Positions 1 to 21,100 of a stretch of 64,000 bases of DNA are shown here, one piece after another. A program made the translations under genes and the position numbers. The stretch covers positions 55,676,001-55,740,000 of the forward strand of contig OZ076415.1 of assembly GCA_964187785.1 (NCBI GenBank). The letters are read 5' to 3'. The first letter of the stretch is position 1. Every line of letters begins with the position of its first letter. The DNA is from Amphiscolops sp. MND2022. Taxonomy: Eukaryota. The notes beneath the pieces are model-generated. The model saw nothing but the letters and a program-made list of their open reading frames with translations. It was not told where the DNA came from and ran no database searches.

Positions 1-112
1 TATATAAAAGAAACAACTGTGAGAAAGAAAATACGTGTACAAAATAAAATCGCACGTGTAAAAATATGTAGTAGAGAAATGGGCAGAAAAAGTTATGAAT
101 GAAAATGGTCAG

Positions 113-2763
113 TCAAGTTTTCGAAGAGCAAATTTTTAGAATTCTTTGTGGTAGAGTTGAGCCACTGAAGTTTTCCGCAGAGCATCTGGAGAGGTGATCG
201 TTGAATCTAATAGCGACGAGACAGAATTTGCAGATGCAAGAGGAGTTGTATAAGAGCGAGTAGCAGTCTTGGTTTCTGCAGAGTAGGTTGTGGAGGCCAT
301 TACAATAATAAAGTGCAAGCGCTCTTCTTTTTTGGGGGGGGGACAAATTTGAAGCCCAAGGAAATCATCGACAAAGAGGTGGTATATTAGGGTACTTGAA
401 GACCATCGGTGGGAGATATTACACCATTTCTTCCAAAATAAACCAAAAAGGCTCAATTGGTGATCTTTCATTCTTTCATGGTCAATTTGAAAAATTTGAG
501 TTCCATAGTTGCCAGCCGGTAAGACTACAGATAGCAGGAGCCGGAGGGCAGAAGCAAATGATATTATCGATAAATTCACTTTTTTGAGGAGGCTGAGAGT
601 TGTGTTTCGGGCTTTTATTCGTACGTGCTCTAAATGCATTTCCGATGAGAGCTTGGTTGAGAAAATAATACCAAGGTAGAGAAACTGTGAGACGAATTCT
701 ATGGGCTGATCATAATAAAACAGTTTGTCAGCTTGGGAAAAGGCCCCGCCATTTCGGAATTTGACAATTTTTGTTTTGGAAACGTTGACTTCAAGGCTGT
801 TTTCATCACAATATTGCGATAGCTGATTCATGGCATTCTGAACATTGTCGATTACTGTCGAACCTATTGCTAAATCATCAGCATAAAAGAAGACACTGCA
901 CTTCGTGTTTTGTAAGATGGGGGAAAGATCAGCAAGGAATAGGATAAAGAGGAGAGGTGATAATCTATCGCCTTGTGGCACTCCAGTGGCTGTTGGGATA
1001 GGGTCAGAGAGTAAACCTGAATCCAATACACTGAAGAGATTGTGACTAATGCAGCAATTAATTAATTGGAGCGTATAACCACCAACACCAAAATCACATA
1101 GCTTTTGGAGTAATTTTGTTCTGTCAACGGTGTCGAAAGCTTTCGTAAAGTCAACGAAGCAAACATAGTATCTTCCAATACTCTGTATACCTTTTTCAAT
1201 AGTTAATTTTAAATTAGTTGCAGCATCAGTGGTAGAGAATCCTCGTCTGAAGCCAAATTGCGTTTCGGGTAGAAGTTCATTCACTTCAGCCCACCAGTAT
1301 AGTCTTTGGTAAATCAGCCCAGTAAGTATTTTCATCACACAGGAGGTCAATGCAATACCTCTGTAATTATTGGGATCAGCTTTGGGTCCTTTACCCTTAT
1401 AAACTGGGATCAAATAGCTCAATTTCCATTGAGTGGGTATAGTTCCTGTAACCCAGCACGCATTGAACAGTTGAGTTAGTAGTGGTATGAGATCATTCGC
1501 ATATTGTTTCAGAATATCATACGAGATACCATCGGGACCAGTTGCCTTACCAGAGGGTTGGGTTCGTATTAAACAGTGAACTTCAGGTTCTGTAAAAAGG
1601 CAATCAAAATAATCTGCATCATAATTGTGATTTAAAATAACAGCGTCATGTTTATTTGGATTAGAGAAGAGTTTACAAAAATGATCAAACCAGGTTGATA
1701 GAGGAACGCAGCAAGCTTGAGCTTTTTGGGTACGGCTACGAAGTATTTTCCAGAAGTTGGCTTTGTCAGATTGGGCTTGTTCTACAAGCTGCAATTCACG
1801 ATTTTTGTAGTATTGTCTCTTAGATGACTGCAATACCGACTTGTAGGCTCTTTTTTGGTAGAAATAGTCAGGGTCAACGTTGGATCGCAGTTTTCGCAAA
1901 TTTTGGTGTTTGAGGTAGAGTTGTTTATTGAACCATGGTTTGGATTTTCGTTGATAAGGGACACATTGGGCTTCATTCAGGTGACTTGATAATATATGCA
2001 TGATGTAGTTTGGTTCACAACAGGTGCTGCTGATGGATGTTTCGTATATTAATTTCCTTAAAACAGCTGAATCACATTTTCTTATTGCTCGCTTTCGGTC
2101 TTCGGCTACTTTACAGGAACATTGCAAGGAGATTCTGAGTGGACAGTGCTTTGTGATATCGTAATTGAGGATTTCCAGCTTAGTTTTCTGCAGAGTTCTC
2201 GCAGAGCAGAATACTAGGTCTATAGTGCTTTTACCATTAGTGCATATATATGTAGGTTCATCGAGATCGTTGAGGCATTCAAATTCTAGGGAGCTTAAAG
2301 CTTCAACCAGTTCTTCACCACGGGGGTTTCTTCTGTCGGTTCTGCAGTTGAAATCTCCACATATCACAGTTTCACAGTCAGTTTGTTGTAGTAACTCGGA
2401 GAGTGGGTTCACAATTTCTTCTAGTTCAGTATTCGGCCAGAAATACGCTCCATAGACACAATAGTTCAGAGGTTTCAGATGAATGCCTAGGAATTGATGG
2501 TCAGCTGCGATGATGCGGGGTAGTACCTTGAGGCGTTTATTGATACCAATAGTTATTCCTCCCATAGGCCGACCCATAGGGGGTTTGGTAGCATTCTGAT
2601 TAAGGGTAATAAAATGTTCAATTTCGAGGTCGTCTACGGCGAAGGTTTCCACTAAAATTAAAATGTCGAAAGAGTTCAGTCTACTATCGGGGATCATATC
2701 AAGTTTGGTTTTTGCTCCTTCAATATTCCAGAATAGAATATTCATTGTGGTTAGTTGATCCAA
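113..2763 (-). mobile_element. Non-LTR retrotransposon (LINE, CR1/L2-like group) ORF2: APE endonuclease + reverse transcriptase, one frameshift near the C-terminus
   Basis: 875-aa ORF 136-2763 has APE motifs (WNIEG, LVETF, GDFNCR, IDLVF, DITKHCP) and RT motifs (NYRGIAL, QFGFR, VDFTKAFD, GVPQGDRLSPLLF, YADD, YLG). The natural Cys-rich C-terminus (CICKFC..HLSRC) continues in ORF 113-346 after a T/G homopolymer run near 327-341. It lies antisense in a STAM intron. Confidence 0.95.
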
Positions 2764-2769
2764 GTTTAG

Positions 2770-3030
2770 TCAGGTGGGCGTTGCATTCTCAACAACTTTG
2801 TTTTTGAAGATTTTCCATTTTTTCTCTGGTTGCGATACTCGTTTCTCACGGAGTTCCAATCGAAGATTATATTGTTGCTGTTGCTCTAGTTTTGTGTAGT
2901 CAGGGTTGATATATGTTTTGGACCATTTTGCTAGATCTTTGAGAGAGATGCTCCCAAGCAGCATTTTCTTCCGCTTGGTATGATCTGTGAAGGTGACGAT
3001 TCACTCAAGTTCAAGTTTGGTATTTTCAGA
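2770..3030 (-). pseudogene. 5'-truncated LINE ORF1 C-terminal remnant
   Basis: IVTFTDHTKRKKMLL..YINPDYTKLEQQQQYNLRLELREKR..KWKIFKNKVV directly upstream of ORF2 resembles the typical ORF1 C-terminus of CR1/L2-type elements. Confidence 0.65.
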
Positions 3031-3148
3031 GATTGAATGCCGATTTTTGGCCAGCCCTCTCCGCTTGAAGCTGATATTGGTTGGGATTTGTCTTGAGGTT
3101 TAACCGAGGTGTTTATATAGAAACAAACCAATGACAATCTGATTTCAG

Positions 3149-6100
3149 AAAAAGCTACAGCGGAAACTCTGGTTTCTGAAAACTGGCCTTTGATATTTGA
3201 AATATGTGACAAAGTTAAAACATCTGAAGAAAAAGGGTTTGTATCTTCACCTGTGTATCATTTTAAACTACTTTTATTTGGTGACGTGCTTCTTTCTTAG
3301 ATGTAAGGATTGTGTACGAATTGTCCTGAAAAGATTACAAAATAAGAATCAACGGGTTGTATACTATACTCTTATAGTAAGTTCAGACTCTATTATAATC
3401 ATTCTTTGTGATTAGCTCTAGTTGAAATAATATGTATCTCTTTTGCAGTTGCTAGAAACGTTGGGGAAAAACTGTGGCGAGCAGTTCATCTTGCAAATTT
3501 CAACTCGAGAATTCTGTCAGGAAATTCAAAGCCTTCTTCAAAATAAAGTAAGATTGTGGCAAAATCAAAGGAAGAATTGTTAAAATCCAGCTGATTAATG
3601 ACCATTTTCTAAGTCATGTTAGTTGTTCATATGTGGAAACAATGTGATTTTTTGTACATTTTTAACTTATTTTCTTAACCTTACAATAAAAATCCATGTC
3701 TGTTGATGACACTCACCTGTGCTGAATTCCTACAAAACGACCAGCAATGTCTCACATTGTGATATAGTGGCAGTAGTGGAGCCGATCAGACAGGGAGGTA
3801 GAGGTCCCCCATGTATTGAGATAGGGCATAGATCCAGATCTGGGCGAAGTTGGGTCCTCCGAGTAGTTCGGTTATATAAAAATGGGTCCCCAAGCCAGGG
3901 GTGTATCCAAAAAAATTTTTCGGCCCAACGGAAATTCCGAGGAAATAAATGAGTCACACACTTAATCCCGAAAATTTTTGAAGATCCGGGTAAAAAATCT
4001 CCAAAAAAAGTGTGTACACACCACCCCTAATCTCCACATGCAAAATTTCCAAAAATTCGAAAAACGACTTATAAATGGTTTGAAACATTCGAAAAATAGA
4101 TGAAACATCACGAATATTCGAAAAAGTGAATGGAAAAGTTCCATTGAACATGAAAAATTGGAAAACCATGAGAAAATAATTCCAAGGTCAACACTTTTTA
4201 TTTACACTTGCGATAAACAAGTGTTATGGGAAAGTGCGGATGCTTATTTTTTCCGCACGACCACTCTCTTTTCACGCGGCAAGTCGCACATTTCACGCCT
4301 TCGTGGTCTAGTGGTAAGATGCTTGCTTTTCAACCCAGAGGTTTCGTGTTCGAACCCGTGGGTATGCGCTAATTTTCTACAAGTATTCCGAAGCAGAAGG
4401 TTCTCACTTTCGGCATTCTGAGACTTTTCAGCTTTGTGGTTTTTTTGAAATTTTTATAATGTCCTCAAAGAACGAATGCATATTTTGCAACAGAACGAAT
4501 GTTAAAAAATCCCAAAGGGTCTTTTTTTTCAGCTTTTTCAGGACTATGAGACTGTCATTAAATTTTTTTAAAGACTCCAAAGAGTCCCCTTCATTTTTTT
4601 GGAATTTTGCAACATAATGGATGTAAAAAAATCTCGAAAAGTCCCCTTTTTCAAATTTTCCGGCATTGTGAAATTTTTCAAAAGGAATAATTTTCGTGTT
4701 AAAATTAGGTTTTCTCAGGCCCAGCATGCTATACCCGATTTTTGTCAAAAAAGACCGGTGTTTTTTCTATGCGACTTTTTTAAAAAAATGTTTCACCGAA
4801 GCCCCTCCTCAGTTTTTGCCAGAAACGAAACGTTTTGCGAGAGTTAAGGACTCCTCAAGGTTTTCGGCACTATGTGACTTACCGGAGACCATCAAAAATA
4901 TTTTCGAAAAAATTCGAAATTTTTTCCCCTCAATTTTCTGTTTTAAAGGTTTTTCGTTAAGAAAGATGGGTGTTTTTGCTGTTTTCAGTTGATTAGAATG
5001 GTTTTCGACTTATGCCTATTGCTTCGGGTATTTTTGGCGCTGTAAAATTGATGAAATTTCAATGTCCTTTTACCCTTGGTTCTCCGTATGATATTGCTTA
5101 TTCGGTCTTCAAAAGTTCGCAAGTGTTTGCGAAGCACGGCTTCGCCTGTGTAGTAACTTGGAGATTTCTCCACACATTTGGGAAAAGCCTAATATAACTA
5201 TTGAAGAAAAAATCCAAAAAAAACTTACACCAGGAAAGACCATGACAAAAGACTGCAAAAATTCAAGAGTGTCATTACATTGAAAACTAATAACAACTAT
5301 TGAGTCACTGGACGAAGTGATGCTGTGTTGCATTATGCGGAATAATATATGAAAGGAAACAGCTCTATACAGGAAACACAAAAAGCAGATGGCGTTCAAA
5401 CAGTTATCTTTACAAAGCTGACTTAGCTAAGGTGGAGAAATGTTGCTAATAGTGGAAAGCTCCTCGATTTTGGATATGCATTTCAATTTACAGATGAGCA
5501 AATATCAGACATACGGGAGCCTTCGTCTACAGCATTGGATGTTTTCCATAGGACTAAATAAAAGTCTAAAGATAGAACCAAATGTGTCCTGTTAATTTCT
5601 ACATGAAACAATGAAAACGGCTATTCTAGGGACGTTCGTTATACCAATGCAACGATTTACAAGTTATCATTAGCTCGGTTCTAATATATCCAAAGGATCT
5701 GTGTGGATTCCCTCTGAATTCAGTTTACGCTTCGGATAAAAGTTTGATAACATTTGGATTGTTCGTAAGTATAAACGGCATGGTTTCGCACCCTGAAACA
5801 TCGATTGATCGATCCAATATCTGAAACGTCATTCAAAACTTTTCTGTATTCCTGAAGAAGACTGATGACTCATTCAGAAAGTGTTGTTTAAACCCTTACT
5901 GCTGAACTTCGTTTTCTTCGTTTGTGAATCATAGCAACGATGTTTTGCTACACTAGCAAATGTTTTCTGTTGCACGGAACTCTTCGTTGAATAATCCAGG
6001 CTCTCGTTTGTCGAGCTGAGAGTGGGTAGAGCAACATGTTCGAGGGAAGAAGTTTCTCAAACTGTCTGCCTCAAAGTTATTACGGCAGTCTTCTTCTCTG

Positions 6101-9100
6101 ATGGCTGACCACTCTCCGAGTTTATCTCGTCTAATGTCGTTCTCTGCTTAGGCTAAATAGAGAGAGTCTGTATCCATTTCCAATTCCTCGAACTTGCTCT
6201 CGTCACAGTACTGCTTGAAAAAGTTATAATAAAGCTCCAGCATTCTGAGCTTAGCGTATTCAAGAATGAAGAAGCCTACAATTATTGGTTATCAATGTTC
6301 TATTTCAGCTTTGACAAGCTCCACTTCATACACTGAATCGTTGATGTACTGAAGTTGTTTGAAGAAGGTACTATTTATAGCTCGGTTAGTCTTTTTCTCA
6401 TCCAAGTGTTTTGTCTCCGTATGCTTGCTTCGATCCATGATTTGATATCCATATGAACTGTTACTCGGCAACTTCATCGTCTCAGCAACCACGGTGGAGT
6501 TCTTGTTTTGATCACCATATCGTTGGGCCTCAACAACTGACTTGAAACGATCCCTTGAAACATTTTTCAGGAGTGTACTCAACGAATCTGTGAATCCTTG
6601 TACACTCTAGCCCCAGCACCCTGTAGAAATTGGAAAGCGGGGTAATAACACTCCCATTTTCCAGGTGTCAACTAGAAATCTTCATTCTGCCCGGTTGTCG
6701 GAGCAGTCCTCGTTGGTCAGCATAGGATTTCATGTATTCACTGATATCAGTTTTGCTCACAAAACAATTCTTGATAATTGGAGGAAAATGTTGAAAGTAG
6801 CTTTGAAGATGCTTGTGGACTGATAGATCACATTGAACATATCCAAATAATGAACCGTTGTCGATCTTTTGCAGTAGCTGCTGCTCAGACAAAGGTTTGC
6901 GAAATGGGAATTTTTTCTTCAAATGTTCCTTCAAGACCTTGTCATCTCTCACTTGCTTCCACCAAAGACATTCCCAAACTTCTCTCGTATCCTTTTCCGA
7001 TGATAAAATGTTTCCGTTCTGCGTCAAGTTTCCTGCGTTCGTGCCATCGTTTCACAATAAGAGCATTCGTTTCTTTCTTTACCATTTGACAATCACAACC
7101 ATGATAGAAACATATCATGGCTTCAAACACGGTGTTACCGTGTCCAGAAAAGCCATCCACACTGAAATTATCAATTTTGTGCTGATTTCCGGTAGTTTGA
7201 ATGCTCTGAATTTTGCAACCAGGTTGCGTATTTCGCAAATGCTCCATCACCATGTTCTCACAGCGTCGTCGCCAATTCTGAACGGGAATAATTTTTTAGT
7301 CGGCGCTTTTCTTGAGAAAAGAGCCCGACTATTACAGTCACTCGTTTTTTTCCTTTTTTTATTTAAGACAGACTCGAAGCGACGAACGTTAACGTTCAGT
7401 ATCTTTAACTAAACGAATACCCCGGAAACGCATCTAAGTTATTCCAAAGGGTCCCCTCTTTGTTTTTTTACTTTTTTACTTTTTCAAGGAAACCCACAAA
7501 ACGTGCCTAAAGGGTCCCCCCTTTGGATTTTTTTCGGCACTGTGCGATTTTTTTCGAAAATGTCCACAAAGGGTCCCCCCTTCGAGGTTTTTGATATTTT
7601 GCAACGGAATGTATGTTAATAAATCCAGAAGGGTCCCCCTTTTACGTTTTTCGGCACTATGCGACTTTTTTTGAAAGAAAATTTTTTTTCAAAAATTTCA
7701 AGTTTTTTTCCAAAAAATGCTTTGCGCTTTTTGAGCCTTAGATTTGGCGCCGACTTTAGACGTTCTCGTGTTGCTTCTTTTTAGCATCAATTTTTTCTTT
7801 TTAGCATCAGTTTCAGATCTGGTGTATAACCCAGTCGCCATTTCCTGACACATGGAGAAAGGATATAATTGACTAGCATCGATTCCAAGAATAGCCCTAC
7901 ACAAGTTTCCAGTGTAACGAAATTTGGTTTCCCCAGCAATTGCTTTCCGTGTGAAAACAATGGAAGGTCCTGTGACCATATCTTCTCTGATTTTGTTCAA
8001 GAGATCTCGACCATGTTCAGTGAATGGGTAAATTTTCGCATTTGTCGAAGAGTGTAGACATGTTGGCTAAATTCGGAAGAGTAAAGCTAAGTTTCAGCAT
8101 GTCGATTCCACAGTCATGATGAACTTTCATCATTTTTTGGACAGCTTCCGGTGTTCGAACACTGGAACATCCTTGTTATTGTACCACTTTAAAAAGTCTT
8201 TGAACGTTCTCATGTTTTGGGATTCCCAAACAGCCTGCAAATAAGTAGTTTTCCTGTCATGTAGGAGGAACAGAGCAAATTTTCATTTCTCGCTAGGCAT
8301 CTTTTTTGATATAGCCATTAAGAAGTAAATTTTTGATCTTTTCATAATCGGCTTCCAGAGGATGTTTATTTCGAAGCTTGCTGAAAAAATCTGTATATTA
8401 TGGAAGTTGTTCATTGTCCAGTTTTGATGGACAGTCGAACCATTCATAGGGGAAGAATCTCTTAGTCTCAGAAGGTTCGTAAGCTTTTAGAATTGAATCT
8501 AGAGTTCTGGCTCCACCAATGAAATTCATGATATCCAACATATGCACTTTACCAAAATTGGATGAGATGAATTTTTTTATTGGTTTTTAATGACACGGGG
8601 TGGCAACCCGTTTTCCATGATCAGAATTGGAATTATTTATGATTTTATGAGGTTCAGATCATATTTAGCACTGTTGAAGACAGAAACTGGAAACGTTCAT
8701 GAGTAATTATCTAGGGATTCCTGTAGGTTGAGTAAATCAGTTTTCTTTGGTGTAAAATCTTTCTTGGTGTAAAACTCGATTCCTTCAAGATTATCTGGTC
8801 AGAGAGTTTCTCTTCCTTCTTACAAACAGCTGAGGTTACGTCTGCAAGTTGCGACCGCAATTGTCTCTGCTTTCATTTGCAAGATTTTCCAAGGCATCCA
8901 CGACTTGGGTTACCACTTGATCGCTTGTGGATCACATAAAAAGATAGGAGTTTTGAGATTAGAAAATATTGATACCGAAATGGGTTCATGTTTACGCACC
9001 CATGTAGTTGAATTGTTTGACTCGGAATTGTTTTCAGTCACGCGAATTGATTCGAAATCAAAAATTGCAAGATTTTTGAAAATTCTTTGTTGCAGGAACT

Positions 9101-12100
9101 GTAATTCCAAACTTCGAAAGTGTTTCGAATTCAATTGGTATGCAGAGTTTGGGATTTTTTCCTTGATCTTTTCACTACAAACTGGCAAATGACGTCGCAA
9201 AATGGCATAGTTGCGGAAAAATTTGTTACAACTTTCACAGCGGAAGCAATTGTAACCAGCATTGAGGTTTTGCGTGTAACAGATGTGATTCTGATAACTC
9301 CGAAGTGTAACTTCTGATAACTCTGGAATGTTTATTGATAATGCGTCGTGATTAAACCCCAACTGGCTGATCGTTTTCAACTTCGATCTCGTAGATGCTG
9401 ATTTTCAGCTGTTAGATCTTCTCTGGCATTGATTGTTTCTAAGGTTACCCCCTTGAAATCGTTAACATCAACTTCACAGAGTTCCAGATATCGCTGGAAA
9501 AGATTCGCTGTTTGATCCTCCAAATTGTGTCTACCTGTGAGGTGAAATGCAACAGCTCTCTTTTCGTTGTATGGTTTGTACGAGGAATTTGTTGATAGAC
9601 AGAATATCTTCTTGTATTTGAGGATACGTGAGGGAATTTCCAGGTTTTGATCACGTAATGGGATTTCTTTCAGAACTGCTGCAAAAAGTCAGATTTGTTG
9701 CAAAAGCAAATTTCCATTTTGTGTTAGGTCGCTCACGTGTGGCTATTTAAACGAAATCTTCCAGAGAAAGTTTTGCTATGAATTTGTAAAGATCTTTCTC
9801 GTTATTCAACAGTTGTGAAGTATTGAGAAGAATGTTCTCGTGAGGATAATGATAGCGGTAATAGTCGCTTTCAATATTACGGAGGACAAAACCCATGCTG
9901 ACATTTATTTTGGCGAACACTAGTCGAAGCTTTTCAGTCATCACTGCTGGGCTCAATTGCGTCAAAGCGAAGTTGAAAAGATGCTGTTTTCCTCTAATTG
10001 ATTCCGAATCAAGAAGAAAATGTTCAACATTGCGAAGCTCTTCCCGAAGTTGTTGACTCCCGTGATCCCCCACGATAATGTGTCGAGGTCAACTTTTCCT
10101 GAAATTGTGACATTCGACTGTGACTGACTGTTATGGCGAGTTTGCTTATGTTTGCGGAGAGCGTAAAAACTGTGGAATGTTAGCATACAATCAGTGCATG
10201 TGAATTTTTTGTCAAGCCTTCTTTGCGATGTTTTCTTTGTGTGTGGTAATCCAGTTCTTCCTTGGTGTTCGCTGTGAATTTCGGACATTTGGGACAAAAT
10301 AAATTTCCTCTCATGCACGATTTGTGACGAGAGATATTCTTTTTGAAATTTTTTTTCCACATAGCACATTTAATACGTTTGTTTCTATCCAGAGCTGGCA
10401 TTTTATGGTCTGAAAGTAGTAATCTTCAGCATGAAAAGAAAGAAATGTTCAAATTCGAAATTGACATTTCCCTGTAGTAAAATGGAAGTTGTCCAAACAG
10501 ATCCCAATTGATTATGCCGCGTTGGAGTATGACTTCTGATTTAACGTCTAATCAAAAGAGGTTTCATCGCAGTAGCATGAAACTTTTCCGAATGTTTTAC
10601 GATCGAGGAGGCGACAGAAACCCAAACATTTGTGTGTACTCGAAAATGATTTTAGGAAAAATAATTTTGTTTGTGATCCGTTGCTAAGACAAAAAGTCCC
10701 TTCCTACAACACAAATCTTTAATGTCTTGAATTTGTAGAAACTTGTCCCACTATTTGGGGTGGACAATGAAAGGAAAAACGAAATTATATTTTGTTATAC
10801 ATTGATATCGAGAAGTGATTTGTAATGACTAGACGCTAAATCGAACAGTTGGAGTCTCGTTGTCAGTGATCGAAATCTGTTGATTAATGGTCTGAACAAG
10901 ATATAAGTTGTTTTTGATTATTCTATTTTAAAGGTTCTCTCGGAACGAGTTTTGTGAGTGTACTACACTCGCTTTGGCACTAAAGGTTCTCAAGTTGAAT
11001 CACTGTGAGATTGATCCTGAATCAATTGTTTTTGCCACAAGTTCTAATTTGAAAGCGAAAGCGGGGCAACGTAATTGTCATCCTTAACTTATTACATAAC
11101 CTAACCAAACATTTCCAGATATACATAATCCAAAAATTATCAACTTCGTGTTGATTTGTATTGCCTACTGAATACCGAGACAATTAGTTCCGTCTTACAT
11201 ATGTCTAGCGACAAGTTTCCGTATAAAATTTTTGCAGAACTGACATTCCCGTTATCTGGTTGTAATCGACATGGATTTTTCTTTTTCGGAAGATCCACCT
11301 ATTGCTTTTCTTTTTACAAGGCATTGAGTTTCAAACATGAAATTGACATTTTTACACTAGTCATGAACTCGAAATACACATGATTCAATAAGAAAAACGC
11401 AAAACTTGAAAGATTGAAAGGCTTCATGAAAGTAAACCGGATCAGCAAAAATAAGTTGTCGGTATCCCTTTCACGTCTATACAGCGTGACTCTCTTTTCG
11501 ATCAGTGTATATAACAATTACCAAATATGTCCATGTGATTCAAATACAAAATCTTTGACAACACTCAAAGAAAACTTCAAAGACTACAGCTGCATAAGAT
11601 ATTTGAATGCCGCTTCAATGTTTACTCAGCGTCACTCCATGTCATCCATTTTGATACAGCAATCATGAATTATTGTGGGTGACTCAAAATAAAAACTTGA
11701 AAGGCTGCATTGACTAAACACACGCATAGTTAATCGCGAACTGTTGCGGTGTGATCAAGGATGACAATTACGTTGCCCCGCTTTCGCTTTCAAATTTGAA
11801 CTCGTGGCAAAAACAATTGATTCAGGATTAGTCTCACAGTCATTCAACTTAAGAACATTTAGTACCACAGTGAGTGTAGTACACCCACAAAACTTGTTCC
11901 GAGATATCCTCTGAAATACAATAAACAATTGTATCGATCACCGACAACGAGACTCCAAGTGTTCGATTTAGCGTCCAGTCATTACAAAGCACTTCTCGAT
12001 ATCAATGTATAAAATATATTTTGGTTTTTCCTTTCATTGTCCACCCCAAATAGTGATACAAGTTTCTACAAATTCAAGACATTAAAGATTTATGTTGAAG

Positions 12101-15100
12101 GAAGGGACTTTTTGTCTTAGAAACCGATCACAAACAAAATTATTTTTCCTAAAATCATTTTCGAGTACTCACACAAATGTTTGGGTTTCTGTCGCCTCCT
12201 CGATCGTAAAACAATTGGAAAAGTTTCATGCTACTGCGATGAAACCTCTTTTGATTAGACAGTAATTCAGAAGTCATACTCCAACGCGGCATTGTCAATT
12301 GGGATCTGTTTGGACAACTTCCATTTTACTACAGGGAAATGTCAATTTCGAATTTGAACATTTCTTTCTTTTCATGCTGAAGATTACTACTTTCAGACCA
12401 TAAAATGCCAGCTCTGGATAGAAACAAACGCAATAAATGTGATATGTGGAAAAAAATTTCAAAAAGAATATCTCTCGTCACAAATCGTGCAAGAGAGGAA
12501 ATCTATTTTGTCCCAAATGTCCGAAATTCACAGCGAACACCAAGGAAGAACTGGATTACCACACACAAAAAAAACATCGCAAAGAAGGCTTGACAAAAAA
12601 TTCACATGCACTGATTGTATGCTAACATTCCACAGTTTTTACGCTCTCCGCAAACATAAGCAAACTCGCCATAACAGTCAGTCACAGTCGAATGTCACAA
12701 TTTCAGGAAAAGTTGACCTCGACACATTATCGTGGGGGATCACGGGAGTCAACAACTTCGGGAAGAGCTTCGCAATGTTGAACATTTTCTTCTTGATTCG
12801 GAATCAATTAAAGGAAAACAGCATTTTTCAACTTCGCTTTGACGCAATTGAGCCCAGCAGTGATGGCTGAAAAGCTTCGACTAGTGTTCGCCAAAATAAA
12901 TGTCAGCATGGGTTTTGTCCTCCGTAATATTGAAAGCGACTATTACCTTTATTATTATCCCCACGAGAACATTCATTTTCAATACTTCACAACTGTTGAA
13001 TAACGAGAAAGATCTTTACAAATTCATAGCAAAACTTTCTCTGGAAGATTTCGTTTAAATAGCCACACAAGAGCGACCTAACACAAAATGGAAATTTGCT
13101 TTTGCAACGAATATGTGTTTTTGCTGTAATTCGAAAAGAAATCCCATTAGGTAGTCAAAACCTGGAAATTCCCCCACGTATCCTCAAAAACAAGAAGATA
13201 TTCTGTCTATCAACCAATTCCTCGTACAAACCTTACGACAACTTGTGCTCATTAAGAGCTGTTGCGTTTCACCTCTTCAATTTCACGGGACGCTGGGGCT
13301 GGAGTGTACAAGGGTTCACAGATTCGTTGAGTACACTCCTGAAAAATGTTTCAAGGGATTCGTGAAGTCAGGTGTTGAGGCCGGACGATTAAGTGATCAA
13401 AACAAGAACTCCACCGTGGTTGCTGAGACGATGAAGTTGCTGAGTAACAGTTCATTTGAATATCAAACCATGGATCATAGCAAGCATACGGAGACCAAAT
13501 ACTTGGATGAGAAGAAGACTAACCGAGCTATAAATAGTGGCTTCTTCAAACAACTTCAGTACATCAACGATTCAGCGTGTATGAAGTGGAGCTTGTCAGA
13601 GCTGAAATAGAACATCGGGAACCATAATTGTAGACTTCTTCATTCTTCAATACGCTAAGCTCAGAATGCTGGAGCTTCATTATAACTTCAAGCAGTACTG
13701 TGAGGAGAGCAAGTTCGAGAAAATGGAATTGGATACAGACTCTCTGTTTAGCCTTAGCAGAGAACGACGTTACTGATTGCATCAGACAAGATAAACTCGG
13801 AGAGTGGTGAGCCATCAGAAAAGAAGACTGCCGTAATAACTTTGAGGCAGACAGTTTGAAGCACTTCTTCCCTCGAACATGTTGTTCTACCCACTCTCAG
13901 CTCGACACACGAGAGCCTGGATTGTTCAAGGAAAAGTTCCGTGCAACAGAAATCATTTGCTTGTGTAGCAAAACATAGAAACTTGTGTTGCTTGTTGCTA
14001 TGATTCACAAACGAAGGAAACTAAGTTCAGCAGCAAGGGTTTAAACCAACACTTTTGAATGAGTCATCAGACAGTCCTCTCCAGTAACAGAAAAGTTTTG
14101 AATGACGTTTCCGATATTGGATCGATCAATCGATGGTTCAGGGTGCGAAATCATGCCGTTTATACTTACGAACAATCCAAGAAGGTTTATCATACTTTTA
14201 TCCGAAACGTAAACTTCATTCAGACGGAATCCACTCAGATCCTTTGGATATATGAGAACCGAGCTAATAACTTGTACAGCATTGCATCGAATTTACATGA
14301 TGTTAAGACAATCAGTCGACTTGAATTCAACAATATGCCCTTAACGTTGTCTTCTGTGATTGTTAAATGTATTACTTCATTTTCTGTTTCAGTGAGCGGT
14401 TGTTTCTAAAGGTTACTTCGTTCAAACCTAAAGTCTCAAGTTTACTGTCATGTCATTGCTATCATTTGTATTTCGTGTGCTTTTTTAGAATATAGCGCTA
14501 GTAAAAGTAACTCCGTGTTTACAGGAATACATTAGATTATGATCTGAATGAAAATGCTTGTCAGTGGAGGTCCTTCAAAGTATTATGAAACATTGTTTTT
14601 CCACCATATACCAAGTTTAATCCTAATCAACTTTCTAACTATGTCTTATGGTGTAATGTATGTGTTTGGTTCTTATATTGTCTGCAATTTATTGCCTCCT
14701 TCGTATGTTTAAGCCTCGATGTTGTTTATATTCATTGTTTTCTCATGATTTTGGAGCTTGAGACCTGGATTATATCGGATTTGCATGCTGTATATAATAA
14801 AACATGCTCATAGTTTTCGCTGAAGTTCATGTTTTTTGATGTGTCGTTCCAATTTGGTTTATTGGTAGGTAATGTATCTAAAATCAAGTTCTTTCATGTT
14901 TGTTTATAACGTCTCAATATTCGTGTCAAAGCAACTGAATTTCATGGGTTCAAGTTGATAAACCTCGATTAGTATCCACTTACAGTCATCGCTGTTCGAT
15001 TGTTCAAAAACATTTCCCCCCGGTTGAATAAATGTATTGAAATAAGTGCTGGCTGGAAATCTCGTGTTGTCGATAGGAAAGTTTTCAATTGGAACAAGTT

Positions 15101-18100
15101 CATCACTATGACTGGTGCAGTGCCTTCTGTGCGTATCTTACCTCTTCGAAATTGAACACATCTTTGATTCAATTAATTTTCAATGATAATCTTTTCCCTT
15201 GAAGTTGATGACTTAACAGGACAACACATGAATTTTATGATTACTCAAGTCATAAGCGTGTTCCCGTTTTCGAGCAAAGTAGTAAAACTGGTTGTGTAGT
15301 CGAACTGAATGTGATTGTGATTCGTTGTTCCACCAGCATTTTTGTAACATTAACAGGAAGTCCCCCCGAAATGAAAGTGTCTTGGAAGTATCTTTGAAAC
15401 ACTACATGGAGCTCCATTCGTCATATAATTGATAGAGAAACGGAGTTGAATATAGATTTGATACTTTTCGATAGAGTAAAAAATCTTCCTCCTGAAGACG
15501 CAAAATTTTAACCTGATTTTGTATGAAAGATAGGCTACAGTTATAAAAATGACCAAAGTATACTAAAAATAGAATTATCTACTGAACATTATGCAACATA
15601 CGTAAATCCTTGTAATGCTTCATACTCAACAAATGATAACTTGTAAATCGTTGCATTGGTAACGAACGTTTCTAGAATAGCCGTTTGTTTTTGTTTCATG
15701 TAGAAATTAAACTGGATACATTTGGTGCTATCTTTAGACTTTAATTTCGGCCTATGGAAAACACCCAATGCTGTAGACGAAAATCGGAAGGCTCCCGTCT
15801 GTCTGATATTTGCTTATCCGTAGATTGAAATGCATATCCAAAATCGAGGAGTTTTCTATTGAAAACCTTTCTCCATGTTAGTTAAGTCAGCTTTGTAAAG
15901 ATAATTGCTTGAACGCTATCTGCTTTTTGTGTTTCCTGTATAGGGCTGTTTCCCTTCATATAATAATCCGCATAATGCAACACAGCATCACTTCGTCCAG
16001 TGACTCAATAGTTGTTATTAGTTTTCAATGTAATGACACTCGAATTTTTGCGGTCTTTTGTCATAGTCTTTCCTGGTGTACCAGTTTTTTTTTGGATTTT
16101 TTCTTGAATAGTTAATTTAAGCTTTTCCCAACTGTGCGGAGAAATCTCCAAGTTACTAAAAGTGTTGACCTTGGAAGTATTTTCTCATGGTTTTCCATTT
16201 TTTTCATGTCGCGACAAAATGTTCAATTGAACTTTTCCATTCATTTTTTAAAATATTCGTGATGCTTGAATCACGTTTCATCCATTTTTCGAACGTTTCA
16301 ATCCATTCATAAGCCTTTTTTCAAATTTTTCGATTTTTCGAAATTTTGCATGTGGAGATTAGGGGTGTACGCACTTTTTTGGAGGTTTTTTCTCCGGATT
16401 TTCTAAAATTTTCGGGATTAAGTGTGTGACTCATTTATTTCCTCGGAATTTCCGTTGGGCCGAAACAATTTTTTTTGGATACACCCCTGGCGTGGGGACC
16501 CACCTCTATATAACCAAACTACTCGAAGGACCCAACTTCGCCTGGATCTGGATCTATGCCCTATCTCAATACATGGGGGACCTCTACCTCGCTGTCTGAT
16601 CGGCTCCACTACTACTAGTGGTATAGTTTATAAATTTGCTCCACTTGCTCAGGTTTTCTATAATCATTTTTATGGGACCGTTATTGACACTGTGAAGAGG
16701 CTCGGCGGCTCAAAGTGTATGGCACCCTTATTTTCCCAGACATGGGCTTCCCAGGTGGTTTCCTTTTCAACATGATCTAGGTTTCAATACGCACGCTTTG
16801 TATTTATTTTAAAGAAAAAAAAACATTTGAAAGTTCAGTATGTACGAAAAGTGTTGTAAAAACAGCTCAACTGCCGTCATAGTCTGATCGAACAGTTTTC
16901 AATAGGCGTTGATCTGCTATGTAGATAGATCGTTTGTACTCATCAAATGTATCAACCTTTCAGAAAAGTTCTTTACCCGTAAGTTTACAGACAGAATTTC
17001 AAGCTAATACAACCTTTAAATGCCTACATCTCCGGCATTTTCATTCCTGTTTTCTAAGGTTTGAGAACATTCTTTCATCGGGACTGGATTTGTCATGCTT
17101 TCATCATGGGCTTTCAGCGACAGTGAATTAGATTTTTGAATTTGATTGTGTTTAGATCTGTTGAAGAGATCATTGTAAATCTAGAGATATATTTTAGCGC
17201 TATATTTTCAACAATGGAAACACAATTGCTGCACTTCAGATCATCTTATGACTTCAGCAGCTTGACACTTTCATGCATTTGAACTATCGAAAATCCCGAT
17301 CAGTTTCAAGACGCAAATAATCGTTATAGCACAGCGATAATTTTGTAGAGATGAGGCTAAGTTCTCTTTGAAAGACATTTTTGGAACAAGTGTGTATTTC
17401 AGGCCCAACAGCCAAGAGTACGAAACAAGCTTCTAAATCTAATTGATACCTGGAATAAACAGTACGGAGGCAATTCGGATTACTCGTTAGTTTCCACCTA
17501 TTTTGTAATGCACTCAAAGTAAAACTCCTTTTTTCACTGATTGACTGTAAGTGATTGAAGTTCCGTTCCAATAATTGACACTCGTTCGTCTGCCTAATGC
17601 CTCAACACTGAGGGTAAAGACAACCGTGAGTAAAACACACTTGTTGAATTGATTTGAAATCGTATCATTCGATTAATCCAAATTTTCATCTGAGTTAAAC
17701 TGGAGTAAGTATATATCTACTATATTTACCACTTAAGCGCAGAATCTGTCTTTCAATAAAAATTTCTTTAGCTAAATGATGACAATTTCCATTGAATTAG
17801 TAGGGCAAAATTTGTCTTCTACATCTCATGAAAATGCAGCGATTTTTTCGTACTCCGCAGAAACTTGTGTACTCTTCTCCTCTCCTGAGTAATGTTATGT
17901 TTTCAGAAGGCTCAACGAATTGTACACGAAATTAAAGAATGACTCTGCAGTTGTTTTCCCAGACGCGGTAAGATGGCTTCCCATAAGTAGTTTATTTCTT
18001 CGATTTTGTCACTAAATTATTTCTTCGATTAAGTCTTACACAAAGTATAATTCCCAACTGAAACCTCTTCCGACAATGAGGACAATCTGGTTCTGATACT

Positions 18101-21100
18101 TGGTCCGTTCCTGGCTCAGTTTGACTATCACAGCATGTAAACTGCTGGTACCCTCTACTGCTTCAGGAATTGAATCGAGAATATCGCAACGAGTACTTCA
18201 GCTCTTAGAGTCAAGACTGTGCTTGAAGTTTACTTTGAATTTCAGTATTCATCTAGTTCTCGAATACTCTGAGCAGCACTATCAGTGCGATGTCTATTTG
18301 TGTATTAGTTTGGTATTTGGGAGAAATGTCGAAGCGGGTATAATCTGTTCATCTCTCTTAGTTCTGAATCATTCATACATGGCTTCAAATCTTACGAGTC
18401 AAGCCGAAAGTTTCTGAAACACTGCGTTTTATGCTATTTTTCTTTGCGTATCTAAACTAAATTGTACGTTTCTCATGCATTTACTGTCAGTTTGATAATC
18501 CCGTTTGTGAAAAAATGAATTTGTTGTGTAAGAATGCGTTTACTAAGTACTGTGTTCAAGCTCGTCATTAGTCTTCCAGTTTCATGCTGCATATAATAGA
18601 CAATTTTGAATGTCACTCTTTAGCAAGTTCATTGCGTCATTCTATTTTAAGCTGTGATTATACTGTTCAATTTTGTTTTGTTCTGTGATACTTTTATTAA
18701 TGCTGTTATTTCATATAGTTTTTAAAGACAAATTTTCGTGTCTTTCATTGAAAATTCGATAACGGTTAGTGATTTTATTCTAGCACAGGTGCTGATTCTG
18801 AGAATGACGGAATACCAGAGAAATTAGGTGACACTTTTATCGAAAATGGCATAAAAGTGTTTGTTTCACATGTTATCTACGAGTTGTGCTATCTGGTTTC
18901 AGTCTTTAATATTATATTTTTAAAACCAAATAGTTTGTTCTAACTGAATGAGGGATAATTCACGCCGGATACCTAAGGCGAGTTTGAATAAAACATGAAG
19001 TGTTTTTAGTGACAATAGGAGCATTGCCACTCGCTTTTTATTACTTGCAAAAAAGGTTGATGTTGAAGGGTATTTGTAGGCAACAATAGCAGCTGACAAC
19101 GCAGTGTCTCCTGCTTCGATAATGGCCTCATCTTCAGTTGGAGCTGGGGGCAACGTTTCTTCCTCGTCTGGTTACTCCTGGACTCCCAACTCTGACTCTG
19201 CCTCCAATACCACCCGTTCCTCTAGACGAGAAGACGATGACCTCGCCAAAGGTTAGCCTAAATAAGTTGAGATCTCGTGTCATGTAACGAGTTCGTAGAA
19301 TATTTATTTTTGAACACATTACAAGCCATGTCTTATTTTACGGTCCGGTGTTGATTGCTGGGTCTTGAGTATGGCTCTTGGAGTTTACCGATTGCGACCA
19401 TCCCTGATGTTTGCAAGATATTGCACATTTCCTGCTCTTTCCTCGTGTTGCATTTTTTTGGGAATAAAAACTCTTGCAGTTTGTGGAACTCACCGATTGC
19501 TAAAGTCTTCAACTTCAGCAAGTATGTTCCAAAAAGAATCGTGGAAGCTCTACCACTCGGTGACACTTGTTCACCGGACGAATGTTTCTCACATTACAGA
19601 TTCAAAGTTCTGGTGTTGCTCCATCTGAAAGTCCGGTCTTCACTGTAGTGTCCACAATATGACTTTTCCTCGGAGTTTCTCAAGTTTCATGCCTTTTCCT
19701 TGTTTTGCACCTCCTATTAAACCCAGTTCAGGATTCAATTACTCCCTGCTGCTTCTGGAACTCACCGATTGCGAAAGTCCTTGACTTCAGCAAGTATGTT
19801 CCGAAAAAAATCGTGGAAGCTCTACCAACCGGCGACACATGGTCGCCGGACGAATGTTTCTCGCATTACAGATTCAAAGTTCTGGTGTTGCTCCATCTGA
19901 AAGTCCGGTCTTCACTGTAGTGTCCACGATGTGACATTTCCTCGGAGTTTCTAAAGTTTCATGCCTTTTCCTTGTTTTGCGCCTCCTTTAAACCCAGTTC
20001 AGGATTCAATTACTCCCTGCTGCTTCTGGAACTCACCGATTGCTAAAGTCTTCAACTTCAGCAAGTATGTTCCAAAAAGAATCGTGGAAGCTCTACCAAC
20101 CGGCGACACATGGTCGCCGGACGAATGTTTCTCGCATTACAGATTCAAAGTTCTGGTGTTGCTCCATCTGAAAGTCCAGTCTTCACTGTAGTGTCCACGA
20201 TGTGACTTTTCCTCGGAGTTTCTCAAGTTTCATGCCTTTTCCTTGTTTTGCACCTCCTTTAAACCCAGTTCAGGATCCAATTACTCCCTGCTGCTTTTGG
20301 AACTCACCGATTGCGAAAGTCCTTGACTTCAGCAAGTATGTTCCAAAAAAAATCGTGGAAGCTCTACCAACCGGCGACACATGGTCGCCGGACGAATGTT
20401 TCTCGCATTACAGATTCAAAGTTCTGGTGTTGCTCCATCTGAAAGTCCGGTCTTCACTGTAGTGTCCACGATGTGACATTTCCTCGGGGTTTCTAAAGTT
20501 TCATGACTTTTCCTTGTTTTGCACCTTCTATTAAACCCAGTTCAGGATCCAATTACTCCCTGCTGCTTCTGGAACTCACCGATTGCGAAAGTCCTTGACT
20601 TCAGCAAGTATGTTCCAAAAAGAATCGTGGAAGCTCTACCAACCGGCGACACTTGGTCGCCGGACGAATGTTTCTCACGTTACTGATTCAAAGTTCTGGT
20701 GTTGCTCCATCTGAAAGTCCGGTCTTCACTGTAGTGTCCACGATGTGACATTTCCTCGGAGTTTCTCAAGTTTCATGCTTTTTCCTTGTTTTGCACCTCC
20801 TATTAAACCCAGTTCAGGATTCAATTACTCCCTGCTGCTTCTGGAACTCACCGATTGCGAAAGTCCTTGACTTCAGCAAGTATGTTCCAAAAAGAATCGT
20901 GGAAGCTCTACCAACCGGCGACACTTGGTTGCCGGACGAATGTTTCTCACATAACAGATTCAAAGTTCTGGTGTTGCTCCATCTGAAAGTCCGGTCTTCA
21001 CTGTAGTGTCCACATTATGACTTTTCCTCGGAGTTTCTCAAGTTTCAGGCCTTTTCCTTGTTTTGCACCTCCTTTAAACCCAGTTCAGGATTCAATTACT

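Follow-up and report, generated by a model that had tools for sequence, protein, structure and literature searches.

The window, that is the whole 64,000-nucleotide stretch of Amphiscolops sp. MND2022 DNA that was analysed, contains a decayed Maverick built as a palindrome, in which remnants of two genes for pPolB, a protein-primed family B polymerase, point away from the centre. Its features are as follows:

3766..3771, + strand: left copy of the target site duplication (TSD), AGTGGC, a 5/6 match to 16617-16622
3772..16616, no strand: whole element, a decayed copy of a palindromic, pPolB-only Maverick family, group A
3772..4198, + strand: left terminus, with (AGT)2 end motif and Maverick-type terminal sequence
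4199..5150, no strand: unrelated high-copy repeat, inserted secondarily (952 bp) and missing in the right arm and in relatives
5151..5673, + strand: remnant of the outer left arm, with ~1.3-1.4 kb lost at 5673/5674 relative to intact copies
5685..10401, - strand: left pPolB pseudogene, its 12 pieces covering 1,409 of 1,444 reference residues
7298..7785, no strand: ~490-bp secondary insertion within the left pPolB, an alignment gap where intact copies are continuous
10402..11087, - strand: left region upstream of pPolB, shortened by the central deletion
11086..11756, + strand: so-called spacer, in fact inner right arm whose left partner was deleted together with the true spacer (junction ~11087/11092)
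12405..14252, + strand: right pPolB pseudogene, 648 reference residues, with ~2.44 kb deleted at ~13275
14253..16616, + strand: almost complete outer right arm with the right terminus, 84-86% to intact copies
16617..16622, + strand: right TSD copy, AGTGGT

An initial annotation of this DNA described an identical terminus on both sides, an imperfect TSD and two divergent pPolB copies, and these observations hold: both ends read AGTAGT...GAGCCGATCAG, the right one being longer by one trinucleotide unit, the flanks are AGTGGC and AGTGGT, and both pPolB remnants are broken. The left terminus pairs with 16613-16158 at 84%, has 45 matches in its own genome and carries an end motif also present at canonical Maverick ends. 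The repeat at 4199..5150 has 6,596 first-look candidates in the same genome, of which the best 40 were scored, and the insertion at 7298..7785 resembles 4480-4553. Polymerase motifs are recognisable in the left pPolB, in which 11 of the 1,253 mapped codons are in-frame stops and which also carries frameshifts and the ~490-bp insertion. Inverted homology does extend from the ends to 11085/11757 as annotated, but the 7.3 and 4.9 kb claimed for the arms measure spans that arm-specific indels interrupt; ~3.4 kb is alignable, and the four blocks concerned hold 3,413 aligned bases, 215 of them mismatched (6.3%). The ~670-bp central spacer proposed for 11086-11756 had to be abandoned, as in intact relatives this sequence sits inside both arms; it is found in both orientations at many other loci, and the true family spacer is missing from the window element. 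The central deletion comprises ~1.55 kb (~0.9 kb of left inner arm, the ~0.42-kb true spacer and ~0.23 kb of right inner arm), and restoring the deletions and taking out the insertions gives, by arithmetic, ~16.7 kb, which is the family length. Following insertion, this copy would have decayed neutrally, acquiring two repeat insertions, three large deletions and its 6.3% arm divergence, and the junction, judged against intact relatives, is a private post-insertion deletion and not a copy-back point.

Inverted arms were found at 26 of 32 further loci fetched from the same genome; the six loci with no second arm comprise three that end at an N run and three that are old. When TSDs were read by eye from the printed flanks of the 19 loci with both AGTAGT ends, 18 had one of 6 bp (14 perfect, all different; four at 5/6) and one had none. 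Other copies with different TSDs are thus present in the genome, but the junction of the window element recurs at none of the loci examined. Intact copies, gap-free examples of which exist, are 16.3-16.9 kb long and consist of two ~8-kb arms (7.6-8.3 kb; 97% of the element), each with one outward-facing pPolB gene, around a 0.4-0.5-kb spacer; in several young copies a run of 200 Ns lies close to the centre, which was therefore not directly read. Within each of two groups the spacers are homologous, at 72-97% in group A and 73-100% in group B. Spacers and inner arms give no alignment between the two groups, and tblastx of A against B outside pPolB matched the terminal ~290 bp alone among the matches listed, with no conserved second ORF. 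As spacers and inner arms are unalignable, the palindrome may have originated twice, in A and B separately. Within group B, five left/right differences lie at most 134 bp from the spacer and distinguish 3/3 left-type from 3/3 right-type arms on different chromosomes. The shared spacer, the inherited inner-arm asymmetry and the different TSDs show that the palindrome itself is the spreading unit, and the window element belongs to a long-lived, self-propagating palindromic lineage. The family has the Maverick ends with a TSD, the absence of an integrase of its own and the multiple independent insertions that characterize a non-autonomous derivative, and it also has the same terminus at both ends, the inverted arms and the short unique centre that characterize a copy-back genome. 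The initial reading as a non-autonomous, copy-back-shaped Maverick derivative is thus retained, but not that of a freshly made defective genome, the lineage being long-lived and its polymerase under purifying selection. Of 81 pPolB loci on viral and metagenome contigs, just 20 of them at least 9 kb long, none had kb-long arms, and no such element appeared in the literature searched, Repbase/Dfam and the founding papers lying outside that search.

The absence of integrase, ATPase and capsid genes from the window element was borne out by tblastn with 53 non-pPolB ORFs, integrase included, from canonical elements and ATPase loci: 0/53 matched the window element and 0 matched 27 palindromic stretches, and in both cases controls matched. 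Pfam scored no family in six frames of the window element, but it likewise left intact pPolB unscored and is therefore too insensitive to count as absence, for which tblastn with Maverick proteins of the same genome was used instead. A PDB sequence search gave weak zinc-finger matches only. Besides pPolB, three young copies have no sense ORF of at least 120 aa. In three young copies of group B the pPolB frame is open in each arm (1,359-1,445 aa), and in the one young copy inspected a 1,444-aa frame has all six catalytic motifs (Exo I-III and Pol A-C). Homologues of this pPolB carry PF03175, with named matches in amphioxus, echinoderms and bivalves at 36-40%, and one PF03175 homologue is 47% identical to the palindromic pPolB over its full length. 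We did not adopt the view that dsRNA necessarily arises from the arms, as two outward genes would give same-sense RNA and only read-through over the centre would fold back.

Canonical Mavericks are abundant in the same genome (17.1-17.5 kb), encode an rve integrase, an A32-like ATPase and a DJR-capsid-like ORF, and have in common with the palindrome termini the end motif AGTAGT...GAGC.GA. The palindromic pPolBs form a single clade (SH-aLRT 100), sister to these canonical Mavericks, with no canonical element inside it. The close autonomous parent that had been sought was not found among the best 63-66 of 1,918-2,810 candidates scored, the best canonical pPolB among the best-scored candidates being 62-64% identical over the C-terminal half and 48-51% over the N-terminal half. 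With no close parent found, a copy-back origin of the palindromic lineage is supported indirectly, by analogy with an independent canonical-derived case whose junction is traceable to its parent. This separate, young copy-back of the canonical family has 4.15-kb arms, a perfect TSD and 3-bp microhomology at the switch point, and it shows that the copy-back route recurs. Alternatively, an autonomous Maverick lineage that has died out or is absent from the assembly could have given rise to palindromes by copy-back again and again, each of them a dead end, with selection on pPolB acting in that parent. We consider this improbable: one canonical-family case does look like a dead end, the non-coding parts of A and B are unalignable and the parent search scored best candidates only, yet independent switches would not give one junction and spacer, and A (dS up to 0.26) and the B clade (dS about 0.57-0.58) each have one, in a clade that holds no canonical element. 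What remains of this explanation applies only to A versus B, as two origins.

In a DNA tree from which one arm with a short overlap was omitted, the two arms of one copy were sisters at 15/15 loci, which argues that they are made alike at each insertion. In the youngest copies arm mismatches are denser near the centre, a gradient that is absent in old copies, where divergence is patchy. Changes in pPolB common to both arms have an N:S of 243:270, compared with 576:181 for one-arm changes (Fisher p 1.5e-25). Similarly, young copies of group A differ from one another with a dN/dS of 0.18-0.21 (dS 0.14-0.26); the value is 0.16-0.17 inside the B clade (dS ~0.58) and 0.09 for group A vs B, compared with 1.0 between both arms of a single copy. 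These substitution patterns show that purifying selection acted on pPolB as the family spread. At five codons, one of them in the window, a copy has a stop in each of its arms, against 45 codons with a stop in a single arm, and over 295 codons of the window element the changes common to both arms number 6 N : 2 S. Some gene conversion after insertion may have occurred, as may parallel mutation or the spread of copies that were no longer functional. Gene conversion alone could also give arm sisterhood, and palindromes could be made by the host through chromosomal fold-back repair and arm-to-arm conversion, with no need for replication as a palindrome. The five shared stops in old copies and their patchy arm divergence would fit such an origin, but a TSD flanks both ends, which must therefore have been there at insertion, copies on different chromosomes have inherited the spacer and the inner-arm asymmetry, and conversion of a dead gene would not produce both-arm changes so strongly biased toward synonymous ones; as the main process, this quite improbable route is largely refuted. 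Palindromes also trouble assemblers, and the N runs in young copies are a reminder of this; nonetheless, a fold-back chimera made in assembly, or two separate insertions placed head to head, are very improbable, given that the window element contains no N, that its arms differ by 6.3% and by private indels, and that many gap-free copies have distinct TSDs. Both a unique junction produced by misassembly and a pair of insertions had been named as ways to overturn the initial annotation, and both fail because the window arms are sisters (100/100) inside one TSD. A single defective genome, made by a template switch at 11085/11757 and integrated once, is hardly credible, for this supposed switch point is unique among the loci examined because a deletion removed the family's centre, and the corrected length is that of the family.

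Overall, the element is probably a fossil copy from a palindromic satellite lineage of Mavericks/Polintons that depends on a helper but has kept a polymerase of its own. Replication from a Maverick pPolB end would have switched template and returned to the same end, giving a ~16.5-kb palindrome that reads terminus, leftward pPolB, spacer, rightward pPolB, terminus. The protein-primed polymerase of the element itself most likely primes and copies its ends by strand displacement. The displaced strand would fold to an 8-kb stem, and panhandle copying, suggested by arm sisterhood and the arm-identity gradient, would equalise the arms from the ends inward at every round. Insertion with a 6-bp TSD would be carried out by the integrase of the canonical Mavericks in the same genome, a likely source in view of the common end motif and the abundance of these elements. 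We infer helper use, episomal replication and packaging; the palindromes are 93-99% of the canonical size. The family appears to have parasitised the complete, virus-like Mavericks of the same genome for a long time. It is possible, though rather doubtful, that it is a true satellite of an animal polintovirus, with a self-complementary, polymerase-only genome doubled to capsid length, packaged and integrated by the helper, of single origin and with near-saturating synonymous divergence.

Template switching in vitro gives palindromic amplicons of phi29, the F1 and F2 derivatives of the yeast killer plasmid pGKL1 are palindromic, and there are adenovirus genomes with a duplicated end. In these cases an origin-bearing end is inverted-duplicated by a protein-primed, strand-displacing polymerase; the palindromic derivatives are laboratory or cytoplasmic forms and, to our knowledge, none is an integrating, long-lived chromosomal family. 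Copy-back/snap-back DI genomes are described as carrying an inverted duplicate of one end, separated from the original by a short unique loop, and as lacking helper functions (PMC6140465). The palindromes differ in that they are DNA, integrated with a TSD and heritable, with a polymerase of their own under selection, and have diversified into subfamilies; DI genomes interfere with and are packaged by the helper, whereas the palindromes offer a size match alone (16.3-16.9 vs 17.1-17.5 kb). Mavericks/Polintons are described with (AGT)2//(ACT)2 ends, a 6-bp TSD, a length of ~17 kb and terminal inverted repeats (TIRs) of 46-1,447 bp (PMC8097293) or 100-1,500 bp (10.1101/2023.08.22.554363), and a retrovirus-like integrase is presented as their defining gene (PMC5499653). 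The palindromes resemble them in the Polinton-type pPolB, ends, 6-bp TSD and total size, but have two pPolB genes, no integrase, ATPase, protease or capsid gene, and inverted repeats of ~8 kb, outside the 0.05-1.5 kb TIR range; the polymerase, termini and TSD thus place the family with Mavericks, and integrase, ATPase/capsid and TIR length do not. Transpovirons and Tlr1, the latter at times termed non-autonomous polintons, are likewise linear dsDNA with terminal inverted repeats, reduced genes and dependence on a larger virus, but carry a helicase fused to an inactivated polymerase where the palindromes carry an intact pPolB, and whole-length palindromy is not part of the description in PMC5499653 (PMC5499653).

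The life cycle of animal Mavericks has so far been inferred nearly entirely from gene content. A palindromic, polymerase-only lineage of near-helper length, with arms reset at each insertion, allows three open points to be tested on sequence: whether replication proceeds outside the chromosome by strand displacement, whether integration occurs in trans and whether packaging sets a limit on size. It also adds a second level of parasitism, in which Mavericks are themselves parasitised. Assemblers tend to break palindromic elements, and published searches would discard them, as a Polinton search demanded at least five Polinton genes (10.1101/2023.08.22.554363). Should the satellite reading prove correct, the family would stand as natural evidence of Maverick extrachromosomal strand displacement via a panhandle and of passage through virions, and such elements may be widespread, having been missed because assemblies break on them and gene-content filters exclude them.

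The feature at 3772-16616 is real and larger than the initial annotation reported, and it is a decayed copy of an apparently undescribed, long-lived, polymerase-only palindromic derivative of Mavericks. Self-comparison of window positions 1-19,400 yielded four inverted blocks between ends that share an AGTAGT terminus and are flanked by AGTGGC on the left and AGTGGT on the right. Remnants of pPolB were traced by tblastn with an intact relative, the left one with 11 in-frame stops, and indels were called by comparison with intact copies.

Features of the window element
3772-4198/16613-16158: inverted block 1, 84%
5151-5671/16158-15632: inverted block 2, 89%
5647-6632/14287-13278: inverted block 3, 88%
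9539-11085/13275-11757: inverted block 4, 92%
5685-10401, minus strand: left pPolB remnant, 1,409 of 1,444 residues in 12 pieces
12405-14252, plus strand: right pPolB remnant, 648 residues
4199-5150: insertion of a high-copy repeat, 952 bp
5673/5674: deletion, ~1.3-1.4 kb
7298-7785: insertion, ~490 bp
~11087/11092: central deletion with loss of the true spacer, ~1.55 kb
~13275: deletion in the right pPolB, ~2.44 kb

With the indel sizes added back, the copy measures ~16.7 kb. The palindrome first described is right in outline, with arms that now align over only ~3.4 kb at 6.3% divergence (215 mismatches in 3,413 aligned bases). Its centre has to be reread. Compared with intact copies, the central deletion took the true spacer, which has no match anywhere in the window, and the proposed copy-back junction at 11085/11757 is therefore a later scar; the ~670 bp taken for a central spacer (11086-11756) is carried in both arms by relatives in the same genome. 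Read-level fold-back as the source of the window copy is excluded by the arm divergence and the private indels, and the window contains no N. The 4199-5150 repeat is non-coding and sits in a T-rich site; a hairpin with a 7-bp stem lies close inside its right end, and by eye it looks Helitron-like. Beside the palindrome is a LINE-type element, whose open 877-aa frame at 136-2769 (minus strand) has an endonuclease (PF14529) and a reverse transcriptase (PF00078) domain. A satellite array of 272-273-bp units occupies 19484-31903, with ~37 copies in its main block and further copies in smaller ones.

The element belongs to a family, with further copies at different target sites. Used as a query against the organism's own assembly (1.07 Gb), the centre of the element gave at least 96 matches, many of them opposite-strand pairs ~1-2 kb apart; family counts are lower bounds, as only the best candidates were scored. 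Inverted arms were present in 26 of the 32 candidate loci fetched besides the window (by batch 10/10, 3/5, 7/10, 2/3 and 4/4, one of the seven being only 0.5 kb). At the 19 loci with both ends legible, window included, 14 TSDs were perfect 6-bp repeats, four matched at 5/6 and one locus had none, and the hexamers, read by eye, all differed among loci. Three intact copies without gaps serve as examples.

Examples of gap-free intact copies
C3:80510091-80526741: 16.65 kb, arms 8.1 kb, 1.3% substitutions
C3:40640399-40657293: 16.9 kb, 0.95%
C12:57642871-57659157: 16.3 kb, arms 99.8% identical

In several young copies a run of 200 N interrupts the sequence near the centre, in two cases between repeats of the spacer; these runs look like scaffold gaps at palindromes but may instead be withheld sequence. 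The family falls into groups A, which includes the window copy, and B, with spacers of 381-423 bp (conserved at 72-97%) and 471 bp (73-86% in older relatives), respectively. The groups are alignable only in the terminal ~270 bp and pPolB (74% DNA), and their layout is nearly identical, pPolB starting ~1.55 kb from the spacer and ending ~2.2 kb from the terminus. Some copies repeat the centre or inner right arm two to three times within one end pair (C4:35564563-35589956, 25 kb with TSD GACCTG; C12:53910602-53931864; C2:27235413-27249900). At least five palindromic copies lie within a ~1.7-Mb stretch of C4 (35.5-37.3 Mb), two of them ~600 bp apart. Also on C4, a group B right end at C4:21603273 and a group B left end at C4:21721991, ~119 kb apart, are both flanked by the hexamer ATACTG, in swapped order, with both arms running into N (L060, L112, L108); a tandem unit may have collapsed here, the contig may be circularly permuted, or the match may be a coincidence. 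Short MITE-like elements with the family termini were also seen at C10:22932892-22933768 (877 bp, perfect TSD GATTCA) and C8:15782459-15782712 (~250 bp).

As in the initial reading, no integrase, ATPase or capsid genes were recognised in the family. In three young group B copies, frames of at least 120 aa from Met comprised one pPolB per arm (1,359-1,445 aa), a 149-aa antisense frame inside it and nothing else. The pPolB inspected has exonuclease and polymerase motifs and N-terminal C2H2-like fingers below the Pfam cut-off. Its relatives in the database number 770; many of them carry PF03175, and those with names come from marine invertebrates. Two canonical elements and seven ATPase loci supplied 53 ORFs other than pPolB, none of which matched any of 27 palindromic stretches, the window's among them; 37 of the 53 matched a canonical element used as a control. 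The palindromes thus have neither the integrase nor the capsid of an autonomous Polinton, and that classification was rejected. Canonical Mavericks are abundant in this genome (137 Pox_A32 matches) and encode an rve integrase and an A32-like ATPase; five copies measured at 17.1-17.5 kb have TIRs of 0.29-0.62 kb, AGTAGT ends and 6-bp TSDs. Canonical ends share the motif AGTAGT...GAGC.GA with the palindromes. Their 447-aa ORF is a candidate DJR-like capsid, a lead from its nearest Atlas cluster, in which 30% of members have a DJR-like family (score 0.98; recognition value under the mark). Among the ORFs of canonical loci L063-L070 and L091-L096, Pfam recognized no adenain-like protease, and several ORFs of 121-250 aa are unassigned. 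Several ATPase size classes occur in the genome, and therefore several Maverick families.

The palindrome is copied as a unit. A DNA tree was built from a 1.5-kb block of the arms, with one arm of a 16th locus left out. The two arms of a locus grouped as sisters at 15 of 15 loci (14 starred; 100/100 for the window), so arms were alike at insertion even though divergence between copies reaches ~20%. Five left/right differences lie within 134 bp of the group B spacer and separate three of three left-type from three of three right-type arms on different chromosomes; in group A, comparison of two copies showed three such sites, none more than 10 bp from the spacer. Arm mismatches in the youngest copies concentrate near the centre (e.g., 5, 2, 1, then 0-1 per 500 bp), a gradient not seen in old copies. 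This is consistent with replication that resets the arms from their ends towards the centre, as a panhandle or nascent-strand fold-back would.

Nei-Gojobori dN/dS was 0.18-0.21 for pairs of young group A copies (dS 0.14-0.26) and 0.16-0.17 when group B was compared with two older relatives (dS ~0.58). A against B gave 0.09 at a nearly saturated dS of 1.6, and the two arms of one copy gave 1.0; pairs that include an old decayed copy, such as the window's, gave 0.30-0.63. Over 11 loci, N:S was 243:270 for changes in both arms and 576:181 for changes in one arm (Fisher p 1.5e-25; unweighted neutral ratio 3.7), with five stop codons in both arms vs. 45 in one. The shared stops and the window copy's own both-arm changes, 6 N : 2 S over just 295 codons, point the other way and may partly reflect conversion, parallel mutation or the spread of dead copies. 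The dN/dS values and the synonymous bias of both-arm changes show purifying selection and indicate a polymerase useful while the family spread.

A quick-search protein tree (745 C-terminal columns, LG+G4), with SH-aLRT as its only support measure, placed all 17 palindromic rows in one clade (100), sister to the five canonical-family rows (97), and grouped the window copy with two group A copies (99). Among the best candidates scored, the nearest canonical pPolBs reached 62-64% identity in the C-terminal part and 48-51% in the N-terminal part. A and B may share one origin, as clade and layout are the same, or may have arisen separately, as the centres are unalignable. Nested inside the canonical family is a separate element, C3:15126077-15138651 (L061/L062), of 12.6 kb, with 4.15-kb arms at 99.5%, TSD AAGGTA and 3-bp microhomology at the switch; it has one whole and one partial pPolB with adjoining small ORFs, and lacks integrase, ATPase and capsid genes. 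This young, independent case demonstrates that, in this genome, products of copy-back from the pPolB end arise and integrate. Metagenome contig L200 has a 1.5-kb imperfect (66%) self-inverted region beside pPolB (2135-3657), which is not a pPolB arm duplication.

A full-text literature search, with most subscription papers, the two founding Polinton papers and Repbase/Dfam outside its scope, turned up neither a palindromic nor a pPolB-only Maverick. The string "palindrom" does not occur in the three papers queried for it among those consulted (10.1101/2023.08.22.554363, PMC11414722, PMC5499653, PMC6431247, PMC8097293, 10.1101/2022.07.12.499685, PMC11071308).

The lineage may have arisen by a template switch, would replicate episomally by strand displacement and would be inserted by the integrase of a canonical helper. 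Analogues are phi29, pGKL1 and adenovirus. Polinton pPolB is described as carrying its terminal-protein primer within the same polypeptide (PMC11071308), and AGT repeats as suited to jumping-back initiation (PMC8097293). Packaging of the palindromes is conceivable; intact ones reach 93-99% of the helper's length, and it has been argued that the capsid constrains Maverick size (PMC8097293). Full length is, however, not required for every insertion, or the short ones shrank later, because the 12.6-kb copy-back and the 877-bp element have perfect TSDs. A palindromic unit with its own TSD in each copy, pPolB as its only content, arms that are reset and a polymerase under purifying selection works like a copy-back satellite of Mavericks.
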